DNA of 34,565 bases from the IMG/VR virus record IMGVR_UViG_2537562189_000007; one strand, given 5' to 3'. Below, piece by piece: positions 15,195-30,354 of this stretch. The notes beneath the pieces were generated by a model. The model ran no database searches. It was not told the DNA's origin and saw only the letters and a program-made list of their open reading frames with translations. Every line of letters starts with the position of its first letter. Position 1 is the stretch's first letter. Source of the stretch: a virus. Its lineage: Duplodnaviria > Heunggongvirae > Uroviricota > Caudoviricetes. Both the position numbers and the translations under genes were made by a program.

Positions 15195-17171
15195 TCATGC
15201 CGCGGCATCCGCGTTGTTCACTTCCACCTTCACACTGTCAATCAGCAACGTATATGTCGCCGCCTTTGATATGTCTGTCAGTTGCAGTTTGTCCGCCGCC
15301 CCTGATGCCGGAGATTTCACCAGTGTGAACGGTGTACCCCGTTTCTCATCCAGTACCGGCGTCACCTGAATGCTGTTGTTTCCGGCAAACTCAAAAGCCA
15401 GTGTGTGCCATCCGTTATCAAAGACCCCGAACGTATCCAGCTTCGCATTCTGCTTCTTGTGGTACATCGCGTTCAGGTTCGTCGCATCCGTCTGCAGGAA
15501 GAAGGACATCAGCATGTCGTTGCCTTCCTCTGACAGCGTCACTCCCTCCGGCAGGGACGACAACTGCCAGTAAATACCCAGGGCAAACTGATTCGGCACC
15601 AGTGCGCCCGGCACCTTAAACCGCACGCTCACACGTCCACCTTTCTTCAGCAACTCTGCTCCCTGCCCGGCGGCATCATGCTCCAGAAACCAGATGTGGC
15701 TTTCCGGTTTGTTCAGTTGCAGGGCCTTACCACCGGTGGCACCCTCATCACTGACCACAGCCTCAGCGATGTTTTTATTAACACTGTCTCCGCTCGCCGG
15801 TTTGTGATAATAGCGCCAGCCCTGTGATGCCAGGTCTTCACCGGACGCCAGCAGACTCATCAGGGTTCGGTTACTGACCGGGGCTTCCGGCTCTCTCTCC
15901 GGGCCTTCACCGGAAGGTCCGGTGGGCTTCACCGTATCAGGCTGTTTTCCGGTAATGAATTCAGCGGTTCTCCCGGCATGCACCAGAATCGCCGTTGCCA
16001 GACGGTCGGAAATAATCCCACGGCGAGCCCATGAACTGAAATGGCTGGCCCTGTCCACAGATGTCCAGGTCTTCTGGTCATTACGCCACTTTGAACCGTA
16101 ATAACCGACGGCTTCCAGGTCCGGGTCTTCTGCCGGGTTATTGGTCTGCACATTCGCACCATTCTCATCCGTCATTAACGGTACAAAGAAAATGTTCTGC
16201 GACTCCTTCCCCTTATACCCTCCGTATACTGATGCATACCCTTCCGCATGACGCTGCTTCCAGAAATACGTTGTGTCCCCGCAAATCCACGGTACCGCTG
16301 ATGCGCTGCCTCCTGTGCTCTGTGATGCCTGACCGGCAAGCTCCGTTCTGAACTGATTCACCATCGCACTAAACAGCCCCGGATGCTGCGCATGCGTCCC
16401 CACTGCCGCATCACCTTCTCCCTGCATCCACACCACCGCAAGCAGACGGTTTTTCGGGTTCTTCGCCAGTGCGGCTTTAGTCCGGCTCACCAAATCCTGA
16501 TACAGCGGCTTACCCACACCCCAGCGCAGTGAATTTTCCGATGCACCGGCTGATTCGCTGTATGTGCCGTCTGCACCCGTTGTGAATGCCGAAGCACCAC
16601 GGCAGCACGGAACCAGCAGAATGCCCGCATTCGCCGGTATAAACGGCAGCAGTTTTTTGGCGATATGCAGCCCCTGCCCCACGGTTCCGTACTGCCCCTT
16701 TGACAGGTCCGCTTTCGGATGGTTAAGACGGCTCATGTCCTGCACATCATGCAGACAATGGTCCGCCGGAATAATGTCGTTATACTTACAGGCGGCACCG
16801 CCCGGTGTCACCGTACTGCGGCGCGCCAGCTGCTTAATACGCGGGTCCGGACGGTCATATGTCTCCGGCAGCGGAAGGCCTTCACCATACGACATGCCGT
16901 TTGACTGCCCTGCCAGAACCACAACAAAGTAATACTCCGGGTCGCTGGTGGCGCTGATTACTGTGCCTTCTCCATCCGACGGCTTCACCACCACAGGTGT
17001 GCTCACATCACCTTCTGCGACAATCGCCTGAATAAGTGCTGCGCCATCATCCGTATACGAAGAAAACGGCCCGCCGTATGGCTGCCATCCTTCACGAATT
17101 TTTTGAGCAAGTGTATCAGCAAGGTCTGACGGCGACGCCGCCCTGACCACGTCATAGTGTTTAAATGCCAT
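15195..17171 (-). CDS. nanS: Prophage sialate O-acetylesterase (NanS-p-like)
   Basis: 658 aa; N-terminal DUF1737-like segment, SASA esterase core with GQSN motif (VVVLAGQSNGMSYGEG), C-terminal carbohydrate-binding-like region; GGGAGG RBS; location between tRNAs and holin as in EHEC lambdoid prophages. Confidence 0.8.
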   Translation of the reverse strand: MAFKHYDVVRAASPSDLADTLAQKIREGWQPYGGPFSSYTDDGAALIQAIVAEGDVSTPVVVKPSDGEGTVISATSDPEYYFVVVLAGQSNGMSYGEGLPLPETYDRPDPRIKQLARRSTVTPGGAACKYNDIIPADHCLHDVQDMSRLNHPKADLSKGQYGTVGQGLHIAKKLLPFIPANAGILLVPCCRGASAFTTGADGTYSESAGASENSLRWGVGKPLYQDLVSRTKAALAKNPKNRLLAVVWMQGEGDAAVGTHAQHPGLFSAMVNQFRTELAGQASQSTGGSASAVPWICGDTTYFWKQRHAEGYASVYGGYKGKESQNIFFVPLMTDENGANVQTNNPAEDPDLEAVGYYGSKWRNDQKTWTSVDRASHFSSWARRGIISDRLATAILVHAGRTAEFITGKQPDTVKPTGPSGEGPEREPEAPVSNRTLMSLLASGEDLASQGWRYYHKPASGDSVNKNIAEAVVSDEGATGGKALQLNKPESHIWFLEHDAAGQGAELLKKGGRVSVRFKVPGALVPNQFALGIYWQLSSLPEGVTLSEEGNDMLMSFFLQTDATNLNAMYHKKQNAKLDTFGVFDNGWHTLAFEFAGNNSIQVTPVLDEKRGTPFTLVKSPASGAADKLQLTDISKAATYTLLIDSVKVEVNNADAAA

Positions 17172-17367
17172 GAATCCTCCCGGCCGGGATAATGTTGTGA
17201 GTCAGATAAGGGGCGGGCTGAAGTCCGGAAGTTACAGGACAATGACAGAAGGAAGACTACAGCCCGCAATACGAAAAAGGCCGCGCAGTTGCGCAGAGTG
17301 ATTACTGTCGGGTATTATTCGCCAGCTGAAAAATTGATTACTTCACGTTTTGTTGTTTATTCCTTGC

Positions 17368-17397
17368 TGCCCGCGTCTCCCGGCGCGGGCTTTTTTT
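17368..17397 (+). terminator. Intrinsic terminator (plus strand)
   Basis: GCCCGCGtctcccggCGCGGGC followed by TTTTTTT. Confidence 0.55.
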
Positions 17398-17427
17398 GCA
17401 TGTAAAAAGGCTCCTGCGATGAGGAGC
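17397..17427 (-). terminator. Intrinsic terminator (minus strand)
   Basis: Minus strand AGGCTCCTcatcgcAGGAGCCT (8-bp stem) followed by TTTTT; back-to-back with the plus-strand terminator. Confidence 0.5.
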
Positions 17428-17456
17428 CTGGATATATGCCTAATCTCTGTATACAG

Positions 17457-17650
17457 CATGATGCCGGGTGCCTCCCGGTGAATTCTGCAATGACCAGACA
17501 GAATCCGCAACTTGCCTATACAATACGCAACCAAACATCTGTCATTATGCCCCTCCGCTCAGGGGGATTCATCATGCAGGATTTTTTTAACAAATGCTCA
17601 GCCAGACAGGCAACCGTCAACTGACTGAATTGTGAGTGATTTAACATTTC
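17457..17650. repeat. Tandem direct repeat, copy 1 (period ~269 bp)
   Basis: Shares with copy 2 the blocks catg(a/g)tgccgggtgcctcccggtga, atgcccctccgc(t/a)cagggggattca(t/c)catgc and ttttaacaaat(g/a)ctcag...gacaggcaac(c/t)gtcaactgactgaattgtgag; the middle ~70 bp is diverged. Confidence 0.6.
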
Positions 17651-17674
17651 ACTGCCCGGTGCCTTCCCCTCATT

Positions 17675-17697
17675 AAAAAGCCCCTCCGGAGAGGGGC
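17675..17697 (-). terminator. Intrinsic terminator between the two repeat copies
   Basis: Palindrome GCCCCTCcggaGAGGGGC preceded on the plus strand by AAAAA, so the minus strand has hairpin plus TTTTT. Confidence 0.55.
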
Positions 17698-17725
17698 TAA
17701 AGCCGCGTATCTGTATCATCATGCG

Positions 17726-17916
17726 CATGGTGCCGGGTGCCTCCCGGTGAGTTCAGTATCAGCACCTGAACCCGCACCAGATAAGGGATATAACCAACCA
17801 CCTGTCGCTGATATGCCCCTCCGCACAGGGGGATTCACCATGCCAGTTTCTTTTAACAAATACTCAGTCTGACAGGCAACTGTCAACTGACTGAATTGTG
17901 AGACATTTAAAATTTT
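17726..17916. repeat. Tandem direct repeat, copy 2
   Basis: See copy 1; begins 269 bp after it with the same conserved blocks. Confidence 0.6.
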
Positions 17917-18005
17917 CGGGGCATGACTGATACCCGGCTAACCACCTGATGCTTCCTTTTTTAGCAACAAACAGGTCCACCAAAGTGAGACAGAAAAAAT
18001 AAGTG

Positions 18006-18082
18006 TGGCGCGTTGTACTGGATTCGAACCAGTGACCGATTGCTTAGAAGGCAATTGCTCTGTCCGGCTGAGCTAACAACGC
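18006..18082 (-). tRNA. argO: tRNA-Arg (anticodon UCU)
   Basis: Minus strand folds as a 77-nt cloverleaf GCGTTGT/ACAACGC acceptor, anticodon loop CUUCUAA, T-loop GGTTCGAATCC, encoded CCA. Confidence 0.8.
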
Positions 18083-18095
18083 TGAATACCGATAA

Positions 18096-18172
18096 TGGAC
18101 CGCCATCGAGGACTCGAACCCCGCGCAACCAGCTTCGAAGGCTGACGCTCTATCCCGATGAGCTAATGGCGG
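18096..18172 (-). tRNA. argN: tRNA-Arg (anticodon UCG)
   Basis: 77-nt cloverleaf with acceptor CCGCCAT/ATGGCGG, anticodon loop CUUCGAA, T-loop GGTTCGAGTCC, encoded CCA. Gene symbol by synteny with the ileZ-argN-argO cluster. Confidence 0.7.
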
Positions 18173-18181
18173 TATGTGATA

Positions 18182-18257
18182 TGGTGGCCCTTGCTGGATT
18201 TGAACCAGCGACCTGGCGATTATGAGTCGCTCGCTCTCACCACTGAGCTAAAGGGCC
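18182..18257 (-). tRNA. ileZ: tRNA with CAU anticodon, ileX-like (tRNA-Ile2; Met not excluded)
   Basis: 76-nt cloverleaf GGCCCTT...AAGGGCC-A-CCA, anticodon loop CUCAUAA; overall close to E. coli ileX as recalled. Confidence 0.65.
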
Positions 18258-19929: not shown

Positions 19930-20751
19930 CTATCTGGTCACCTTTTTCAGTTGTTGTTCTGCCCATGCTTCTTCAATATCAAACTGCACCACCAGCGTAT
20001 CGTAAAAACGTTTAACTGTTTTTTTCCATGTATCAAGAGATATGGCATCGGTTACATTACATATGGCATTAAATGCCTCCGTTGAAGGTAATCTTTCATA
20101 GCCACGCCCACCACAACGCTGGCAGTTTCTGAAAACCGGCACACCCTGTTTTTCCGACTCTTCACGATGAATGGCAACACCGCGCCCACGACAATCTTTA
20201 CAGGCGGTGGAAACCTCCCCCTTTCCGCCACACTCCGGACAGGCAACTTTTACCACCTCCCTGACTTTTTTCCATTCCTCCCAGTAAGACGGATACACGC
20301 CTTTTGTGCACTTTGCCCACACTGGCGGCTTACCATCCGGATACTGGATCTTGTTTGTAAAAACCTCGCTTTCAATAAATTTTTTTCCGTGACAGCAGGG
20401 GCACTGTTTTTTGCTCGCCGCGCTACGGGCATAATCTTCAAACGCATACGAAGCCATAATACGCATCACTGCCGGTTTTATTTCTGCCGGGAGTTTTCTT
20501 AACGCCGCCACGCGATCACACCGACTGAGTGCATATTCTGTCAGCAATTCTGTTGCCCGCTCTCTGTCATTCATACTAATGCCCATTCTCCCAAGGAACG
20601 CAGAAAACCCCATCTCAGCCCGATTCTGTGTCATGCCCTGCGCGGCCATCACATCAGTGATACTCAGCGCATCTTTTGACGTTGAGGCCGATGCATCAGT
20701 CAGGCCGGGGGATTTTGGGGAGTAGTATTTCGGTAAATCTTCCAGTTTCAT
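19930..20751 (-). CDS. Putative late antiterminator Q-like protein with DnaJ-type zinc-finger repeats
   Basis: 273 aa; position (after rusA and DUF968, before pR'/tR'-like elements and the late genes) matches Q; three CxxCxGxG repeats (CPECGGKG, CKDCRGRG, CQRCGGRG) plus CPCCHG. Confidence 0.55.
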   Translation of the reverse strand: MKLEDLPKYYSPKSPGLTDASASTSKDALSITDVMAAQGMTQNRAEMGFSAFLGRMGISMNDRERATELLTEYALSRCDRVAALRKLPAEIKPAVMRIMASYAFEDYARSAASKKQCPCCHGKKFIESEVFTNKIQYPDGKPPVWAKCTKGVYPSYWEEWKKVREVVKVACPECGGKGEVSTACKDCRGRGVAIHREESEKQGVPVFRNCQRCGGRGYERLPSTEAFNAICNVTDAISLDTWKKTVKRFYDTLVVQFDIEEAWAEQQLKKVTR

Positions 20752-29865: not shown

Positions 29866-30354
29866 TTAGCACCAGTAAAAACAGGTTGCCACTGGTTAAT
29901 TTACCCTGAAAAGTCAGGGCATAACACGAAAGCGCACGGCGAAGTTCGTATATCTGTACGGCGTCGTTAAATTTTCTTCGACCGTGCACTTCCGGTTGTG
30001 GCAATCCGCGAAATGGCGCGGCGGTAAGTATGGCTGGGGTTTCCTCCATTGCTCCAGAAAATGCACCGGGTTGTCAGGTTGACCATACGCTTAAGTGACA
30101 GCCCCGCCACAATACCCATGTGTAGTCTTTGGTGGCATCAGTTCTACTCCGTGACTGCTCTGCCACCCTTTTTAAAGTGAATTTTGTGATGCGGTGAATG
30201 CGGCTAAGCGCACGCGGAACAGTTAAAACCGTAAAGTGGTCTTTTACTGGCGTAACAGACATCAACTAACAATCCGGCGTTAATTGTTAACTGGTTAACG
30301 TCACCTGGAGGCACCAGGCACCACATCACAAAATTCATTGTTGAGGACGCGATA

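Follow-up and report, generated by a model that had tools for sequence, protein, structure and literature searches.

A tandem repeat beside the empty moron site of a Caudoviricetes prophage consists of two STnc100-family small RNA genes

Eight lambdoid prophages of Sakai carry convergent pairs of genes for Hfq-bound small RNAs (sRNAs), located downstream of PR' at the moron site (Tree et al. 2014, PMC4104026). The pair of the Stx2 phage consists of EcOnc27, encoded on the late strand and cross-linked to Hfq, and AsxR (EcOnc02), encoded on the opposite strand (PMC4104026). EcOnc27 is the same RNA as sRNA103 of EDL933, which was confirmed by Northern blotting and whose overexpression raises the levels of the fimZ and espA transcripts (PMC7873438). 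Here we describe a related locus in the IMG/VR record IMGVR_UViG_2537562189_000007, a virus sequence of 34,565 nucleotides (Duplodnaviria; Heunggongvirae; Uroviricota; Caudoviricetes) that we refer to, at its full length, as the window. Between a tRNA cluster and an esterase gene it contains an imperfect tandem repeat. The repeat consists of two neighbouring sRNA genes of the STnc100 family (Rfam RF02076), which we call copy A (upstream) and copy B (downstream).

STnc100, which lies 75 nt 3' of the stx2 operon, has also been detected in outer-membrane vesicles (PMC12370729). EDL933 contains 11 STnc100 copies, all of which are transcribed without induction and one of which was verified by Northern blotting (PMC5331693). 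The PasD1 and PasD2 RNAs of enteropathogenic Escherichia coli (EPEC) are 172-173 nt long and Hfq-dependent, have targets defined by RNA interaction by ligation and sequencing (RIL-seq), and carry the seed UGUGAG just 5' of the terminator (PMC8550237). A common ancestry of PasD and STnc100 was argued by Zhu, Shabalina and Storz 2026 (bioRxiv 10.64898/2026.05.13.724894). The STnc100 family, its position beside the Shiga toxin genes (stx), Hfq binding and the pairing with a convergent sRNA are thus all published, and the feature described here is already known as such. Our additions are small and modestly new: a conserved A/B tandem pair of which an exact recombinant exists, a count of how often the collected loci contain arrays, and an occurrence of the core fold between dicF and dicB.

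The locus shares with STnc100 genes, including EcOnc27/sRNA103, the fold, the slot in the phage genome (Q and PR', tRNAs and moron site, then an esterase), the late strand and the convergent partner. It differs from EcOnc27/sRNA103 in having two diverged tandem copies instead of a single one, and stx lies upstream there but is missing here. The stx2-linked allele differs from the window copies in the variable middle and the 3' linker (78-81% identity). PasD1/PasD2 (EcOnc13 in enterohaemorrhagic E. coli, EHEC) occupy the same slot (Q, sRNA, then esterase or holin), belong to the same size class, and share the closing stem GCAUGGUGAAUCC... and the promoter geometry. They are, however, distant relatives that have an altered core hairpin (AGCGGGAGGCGCC), score below the Rfam STnc100 threshold and reach only 34-35 bits with R1, a covariance model that we built from seven sequences. 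Neither window RNA contains the PasD seed UGUGAG, and by sequence identity neither of them is a PasD RNA.

Two STnc100-family genes with a covarying fold

A repeat search of the window returned a segment of 104 nt at 17546-17649 and 17812-17915 (88% identity, spacing 266 bp) and a second one of 30 nt at 17456-17485 and 17725-17754 (93% identity, spacing 269 bp). When 17390-17660 and 17660-17930 were aligned with gaps on the minus strand, 82% of the columns were identical; the 5' third and a central block of 20 nt are conserved and the stretches between them differ. An earlier interpretation of this DNA, made without database searches (the sequence-only reading), had described two imperfect direct repeats with conserved ends and a diverged middle and had proposed a pair of paralogous minus-strand genes for non-coding RNAs. 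The repeats are real, with a period of 266-269 bp, and the pattern of conservation is that seen in the gapped alignment.

The Rfam search that the same reading had suggested returned two STnc100 matches far above the gathering score of 47 bits. In the scan of the whole window, copy B scored 183.0 bits (E 4e-42, 17606 to 17398) and copy A 146.2 bits (E 1e-32, 17872 to 17668). Both span model positions 1-206, which is the full length of RF02076, and with such E-values the repeat units are far beyond chance. Model R1 placed the structured RNA at 17846 to 17672 in copy A and at 17580 to 17402 in copy B. Each repeat unit therefore comprises an STnc100-family gene and, 5' of it, about 45-70 bp of conserved DNA. 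This assigns a previously unannotated intergenic repeat to a curated RNA family.

Folding by RNAalifold (seven sequences: both copies and five homologues; 6 compensatory pairs) and folding of single sequences gave the same structure. It starts with a closing stem, GCAUGGUG/CACCAUGC, that encloses three hairpins. Inside the stem, a CCCCC/GGGGG hairpin is followed by a variable unpaired stretch, a covarying hairpin of 8 bp and an invariant CCGGG-AGGCA-CCCGG hairpin. Then come an unpaired linker of about 25 nt and an intrinsic terminator with a U tail. For copy A, the minimum free energy and centroid folds both consist of the closing stem, three hairpins and the terminator. The RF02076 consensus structure, a closing stem around hairpins followed by a 3' terminator, is present in both copies. 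The core hairpin is identical in A and B and invariant across the seven sequences of alignment A2. A terminator scan found five terminator-like sites in the region of the repeats, compared with 1.1 +/- 1.2 in shuffled sequences. The terminators that had been proposed at 17675-17697 and 17397-17427 correspond to the hairpins at 17698-17679 and 17429-17408; the terminator helix is helix 5 of the consensus structure and shows compensatory changes.

To collect homologous loci we used an exact 19-mer from helix 4, CACCGGGAGGCACCCGGCA, as a probe against a one-genome-per-species bacterial collection and IMG/VR. At least 120 stretches were obtained from each source, giving more than 240 loci together. 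The bacterial matches listed include Escherichia, Shigella, Salmonella, Citrobacter, Enterobacter, Klebsiella, Kosakonia, Pantoea, Erwinia and Rahnella, and a few GC-rich chance matches in actinomycetes are also among those listed. R1 detected 315 copies in these loci. Covariation was strong over about 110 Enterobacterales loci: among 127 distinct sequences from Enterobacterales genome contigs, 93.9% of the cells pair, as against 38-52% when the partners are slid by 1-3 columns, and 30 of 34 pairs were changed on both sides. None of 500 shuffles reached the observed pairing values. This covariation analysis had likewise been suggested at the outset, and the proposal of two paralogous RNA genes is borne out by the RF02076 matches, the covarying fold, the lack of a conserved reading frame (see below) and the Hfq-bound homologues.

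The moron site and the convergent partner

The surroundings are as the sequence-only reading had described them. ARAGORN found three minus-strand tRNAs, corresponding to the ileZ-argN-argO-like cluster; at the homologous locus of E. coli 04-00955 (L003), PGAP calls the CAT tRNA tRNA-Ile. The nanS-p-like gene is an open reading frame (ORF) of 658 aa with DUF1737, SASA and DUF6645 domains. It is the conserved ORF 3' of the sRNA cluster and is followed by holin and lysozyme ORFs. In the sense of the minus strand, the tRNA cluster lies upstream of the repeats within the late transcription unit, and genes for a DNA methylase and the Q antiterminator lie farther upstream than the tRNAs. The largest ORFs between the tRNAs and the esterase gene (17172-18005) do not exceed 70 aa, so there is no toxin gene, again as had been stated. 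No complete E. coli genome matched the repeat locus above 93%. The 12 kb around the locus are 96-98% identical, over 81-89% of their length, to prophages of Shiga toxin-producing E. coli (STEC), one of which is a Stx2b prophage. As a separate observation, the Q antiterminator also matches the DnaJ CXXCXGXG zinc-finger domain, with a score (29.8 bits) that stays below the cut-off of 32.7.

The repeat had also been taken to stand in this phage instead of stx. Comparison with Stx phages does not agree with this. In the Stx2a phage Stx2_14040, a stx2AB cassette of 1,336 bp is found in place of window positions 17906-17968, and homology breaks at window 17905/17969 (L247 3841/5178; blastn). The backbone of this phage is otherwise collinear with that of the window; the order in Stx2_14040 is Q, methylase, three tRNAs, stx2A, stx2B, one STnc100 copy (116.7 bits), esterase and holin. 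Phage phiSTEC1589-Stx1c carries an A-B tandem STnc100 pair downstream of stx1B, and E. coli JNEC-KY176 has the tandem pair without stx and without the tRNAs. Since stx2AB replaces only 63 bp, upstream of copy A, and since the pair is also found beside stx1B, the repeat is not a toxin substitute. The same sRNA gene or genes lie directly 3' of stxB in Stx1 and Stx2 phages, and the empty site is at 17906-17968. Prophages of this group have the sRNA cassette as a constant neighbour of the stx/moron site, with or without stx, which corrects the idea of a stand-in for the toxin. In a machine-learning study, variants at STnc100/EcOnc27 downstream of stx2B were predictive of haemolytic uraemic syndrome (HUS), and EcOnc27 overlapped the Infernal STnc100 call (PMC12711010). 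The relevance to STEC biology is modest: STnc100/EcOnc27 variation is statistically linked to HUS (PMC12711010), and the family has no established target or mechanism.

A third sRNA gene, on the plus strand at 17212-17397, converges on copy B and is antisense to the 5' untranslated region of the esterase gene. Its EPEC homologue, 'E2348C_1409.E2348C_1408.IGR', was defined by RIL-seq and is Hfq-associated (PMC8550237 table S6); in EHEC it corresponds to EcOnc08/21/42. The strong terminator of the plus-strand gene (17369-17390) and that of copy B (17429-17408) face each other. The start of the feature had originally been set at 17368, which includes the plus-strand terminator and thus part of a separate gene. 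The Rfam models of AgvB and AsxR do not match 17212-17397. As in the pairs of Tree et al. 2014, the genes lie downstream of Q and PR', between the moron site and the conserved ORF, with a partner on the opposite strand and facing terminators. The locus is therefore a canonical convergent sRNA pair at the moron site with one extra late-strand copy.

The same convergent dyad is found in EPEC prophage PP6. In PP6 of E2348/69 (L248 1612-3293), the STnc100-type copy has a damaged 5' end with mismatches in the closing stem and the first hairpin. It adjoins an ISEc13 transposase gene annotated just upstream, and the convergent partner is intact and, according to RIL-seq, expressed.

Table 1. Positions of the sRNA genes, their parts and neighbouring features in the window
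Feature	Position	Strand	Basis or details
STnc100-family sRNA gene, copy A (upstream)	17673..17872	-	RF02076, 146.2 bits; R1, 184.4 bits
STnc100-family sRNA gene, copy B (downstream)	17402..17606	-	RF02076, 183 bits; R1, 172.2 bits
Core hairpin UCACCGGGAGGCACCCGGCA, copy B	17455..17474 (copy A equivalent 17724-17743)	-	Repeat search and alignments
Intrinsic terminator, copy A	17679..17698	-	AGCCCCUCUCCGGAGGGGCU then UUUUU; 8 pairs; terminator scan
Intrinsic terminator, copy B	17408..17429	-	AGGCUCCUCAUCGCAGGAGCCU then UUUUU; 8 pairs; terminator scan and consensus structure
Predicted promoter and upstream block, copy A	17847..17925	-	TTGCCT-like -35, TGnTAAAAG -10-like, conserved block CTCACAATTCAGTCAGTTGACA
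Predicted promoter and upstream block, copy B	17581..17660	-	TTGCCT-18-TAAAAA with upstream TG; conserved block of copy A also present
Empty moron (stx) site	17906..17968		63 bp; blastn of window against L247
Third sRNA gene, homologue of EPEC sRNA	17212..17397	+	95% identity to E2348/69 1444789-1445029; terminator 17369-17390
NanS-p-type esterase gene, 658 aa	15195..17171	-	DUF1737, SASA and DUF6645 (Pfam)
tRNA cluster: CAT (ileZ-type), Arg-TCG, Arg-TCT	18006..18257	-	ARAGORN; Rfam tRNA
Q antiterminator gene	19930..20751	-	PF03589, 171.6 bits
DicF sRNA gene	30117..30168	+	Rfam RF00039, 61.1 bits

Predicted transcripts and mode of action

The PasD2 promoter reads TTGACT-18-TAAAAA-7-G+1, and the start determined by RNA-seq is the G of GCAUGG (PMC8550237 table S6). 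In an anchored upstream alignment, both window copies show the same geometry, TTGCCT-18-TAAAAA or TAAAAG preceded by TG. Across the family, upstream conservation amounts to a weak A/T-rich signal about 10 nt 5' of the closing stem. The promoters are assigned by homology to PasD2 and by this weak conservation, with approximate hexamers and starts. The PasD2 start and the shared geometry place the 5' ends near 17843-17858 and 17577-17592, and the transcripts likely extend from there to about 17673 (copy A) and about 17402 (copy B), so that each RNA would measure about 170-190 nt. Roughly the first 28 positions of the Rfam STnc100 model probably represent promoter sequence. The length of 200-250 nt proposed before is thus probably too high, the 5' block of each repeat being mostly promoter and upstream DNA.

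Upstream of each predicted promoter, at 17607-17650 and 17873-17916 on the minus strand, we noticed a block of about 45 nt, AAATnnCTCACAATTCAGTCAGTTGACnGTTGCC, that is better conserved between the copies than are the middles of the RNAs. It includes CUCACA, the target motif of the PasD seed. The upstream block CTCACAATTCAGTCAGTTGACn is conserved among E. coli alleles. The block of about 45 nt may belong to a longer transcript or may serve as an operator or a second promoter.

We consider it probable that A and B encode two Hfq-dependent sRNAs that act in trans by base-pairing, are expressed from their own promoters in the lysogen, have a common scaffold and differ in their unpaired regions and hence in their targets, and that Q allows read-through during lytic growth. 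The fold, the covariation, the family membership, the synteny and the recombinant described below are the observations on which this proposal builds; that the A and B alleles are transcribed, bind Hfq and have targets is drawn from analogy with their homologues. Each gene would have a weak sigma-70-type promoter of its own, so that its transcription in the lysogen would not need the late promoter, which depends on Q. By the example of the homologues, Hfq would bind through the terminator/U-tail module, and variable unpaired stretches, chiefly the linker before the terminator, would pair with host and prophage mRNAs. The linker is favoured because the PasD seed lies there. Because A and B have different linkers and internal variable regions, they would be expected to recognise different target sets, and the pair would be a two-gene regulatory cassette rather than a redundant duplication. 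In the lysogen, both terminators would add insulation; during lytic growth, Q-modified RNA polymerase coming from PR' would pass both of them into the esterase and lysis genes. In their way of working, the two genes would resemble OmrA/OmrB and PrrF1/PrrF2, which are adjacent paralogous sRNA genes with their own promoters and terminators and partly shared segments. Those pairs differ in being unrelated in sequence and fold and in belonging to the core genome, with known regulators and targets, whereas the genes described here are prophage-borne and share a 5' scaffold.

Several points weigh against this proposal. No target is known for the copy A or copy B allele, and the effects of EcOnc27/sRNA103 on fimZ and espA were reported from overexpression only, with an unclear mechanism (PMC7873438). 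The promoters and 5' ends are inferred, a generic sigma-70 scan called no minus-strand promoter, and the -10-like TAAAAA/TAAAAG lacks the usual final T. The U tails of 5 nt are short for strong Hfq binding. As to the fold, the z-scores from single-RNA folding are modest (-1.3 and -1.5) and the covariation alignment was fitted to model R1. Helix 4 is invariant by construction, since the loci were collected with an exact 19-mer from that helix, and it is therefore helices 1, 3 and 5 that carry the covariation evidence.

Late transcription meets the two intrinsic terminators immediately before the esterase and lysis genes, and this position downstream of PR' and Q is conserved. One could read the units as acting mainly in cis, as a double terminator or insulator that in the lysogen would keep transcription leaking through tR' and the tRNAs away from the esterase and lysis genes, with the RNAs as by-products; that no trans target has been established for any STnc100-type member fits this as well. 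We regard such a role as unlikely, however. A terminator needs only about 30 nt, whereas many genera share, 5' of the terminator, a conserved and covarying domain of about 120 nt with several hairpins, and the terminators themselves are the most variable part. The homologues are abundant, bound to Hfq and have mRNA partners (PMC8550237, PMC4104026), and between dicF and dicB the core fold is present without a terminator. It also seems improbable that both RNAs are sponges that titrate core-genome sRNAs, by analogy with the anti-sRNAs AgvB (RF02702) and AsxR (RF02703); prophage anti-sRNAs of EHEC late regions had been mentioned in the sequence-only reading. Sponging is documented for sRNAs at this type of locus (PMC4104026), and AgvB and AsxR share with the repeats the locus type, a convergent pair at the moron site, and Hfq binding. 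Yet AgvB, AsxR and EcOnc03 measure 51-60 nt, have a conserved 3' region of about 42 nt and are read from the opposite strand, as convergent partners of the STnc100-type gene (PMC4104026), whereas the repeats lie on the strand of the late transcript and are about three times longer, and we rejected this class for them. AgvB and AsxR are unrelated to the repeats in sequence, and identity with either was likewise rejected: their Rfam models had no match in the whole window at the gathering score and none in 17100-18100 even at E<=10. The slot of the anti-sRNA is taken in the window by the plus-strand sRNA at 17212-17397, and PasD, the relative that has been studied, pairs mostly with mRNAs.

The possibility that the repeat is coding or decayed coding DNA, be it for small proteins, a type I toxin-antitoxin array or the remnant of a moron gene, appears very remote to us. 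There are ORFs of 32-70 aa that overlap the units, hypothetical proteins have been annotated here in some cases, and ribosome footprints were found on some EDL933 copies (PMC5331693). The sequence-only reading had found no ribosome-binding site for the small ORFs; three of them do have a Shine-Dalgarno-like sequence upstream, yet no ORF is conserved. One such sequence is the conserved GGGAGG of the invariant hairpin (17455-17474, 17724-17743), which precedes an AUG of the closing stem by 11 nt; an AUG after GGAGG occurs in only 53 of 278 distinct sequences. ORFs from the conserved AUG extend through the terminator into sequence that is different in each allele, so that the peptides are unrelated. 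The small ORFs of the repeat region had no Pfam match, the distances separating two conserved anchors fall evenly into all three frames (80/72/62), and substitutions track base-pairing rather than codons. A decayed protein-coding gene, named beforehand as the finding that would speak against RNA genes, is therefore not what the data point to. The GGA-containing hairpins might be putative protein-binding sites. By tblastn the window lacks DUF3927, a small gene that annotations place at many homologous E. coli loci and also upstream of PasD.

Recombination, arrays and the core fold elsewhere

In all three tandem loci (the window, phiSTEC1589-Stx1c and E. coli JNEC-KY176), the upstream copy has an A-type 3' end with the terminator CCCCUCUCCGGAGGGG, and the downstream copy has a B-type 3' end with the linker GUAUACAGAGAUUAGGCAUAUA and the terminator ...CUCAUNGCAG.... 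The two-gene arrangement is therefore conserved across prophage backgrounds. Several STEC genomes match the A-B junction contiguously, at 89%. Among complete E. coli genomes, that of strain 04-00955 comes closest to the window at the repeat locus, and it has a single STnc100 copy (L003 4103-4278). At the 82 columns that distinguish A from B, this copy agrees with A at 43 of 43 (positions 3-145) and with B at 39 of 39 (positions 166-229). It is thus an exact chimera of an A 5' part and a B 3' part, with the crossover inside the invariant 20-mer. This is the product expected from core-to-core recombination in which one 269-bp unit is deleted. The 5' and 3' modules can therefore be re-assorted, and new alleles arise by recombination within the invariant core. 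The A/B pair and its recombinant provide natural material for finding which module (the internal variable region, the 3' linker or the scaffold) sets the targets.

Tandem arrangements are not confined to the three loci. Among the hit clusters in the collected loci, 34 of 262 were arrays (18 pairs, 13 triplets and 3 quadruplets), with a median spacing of 255 nt. Arrays of 2-4 members occur on Enterobacterales genome contigs and on IMG/VR contigs (for example L051, L083, L099, L052, L040, L136, L145, L158, L195 and L144). The wide distribution, the recurrent arrays and the occurrence between dicF and dicB suggest a scaffold function beyond the carrying of a seed. Tentatively, and with more doubt than confidence, we suggest that the STnc100/PasD core is a general RNA scaffold of prophages, whose 3' seed-terminator modules are exchanged at the invariant 19-20-mer, whose arrays of 2-4 members diversify targets, and which is used in cis in the dicF-dicB transcript. 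The scaffold is possibly a protein-binding or stabilising domain around the CCGGG-AGGCA-CCCGG hairpin. If this were true, the window would be a snapshot of shuffling: an A-B pair whose exact recombinant sits in another strain.

IpeX of the cryptic prophage DLP12 is a prophage sRNA in the Q-to-lysis region. We rejected identity with it, as neither Rfam STnc100 nor R1 had a match in the quuD-nmpC-essD region of DLP12 in K-12.

The STnc100/PasD core fold was also seen between dicF and the dicB start codon, at 30186-30330 on the plus strand of the window and at L249 1953-2125 in Qin of K-12. It has a closing stem, GUGAUGCGGUG/CACCACAUCAC, and the hairpin CACCUGGAGGCACCAGGCA, and it is without a terminator of its own. 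Its R1 scores are 31.4 bits (window) and 36.6 bits (K-12); the Rfam STnc100 score in K-12 was 34.4 bits, which is below the threshold. The differences between the window and K-12 in the closing stem keep the pairing. A dicB-like ORF starts at about 30356, after the DicF gene, and the prophage therefore carries a Qin-type dicBF module.

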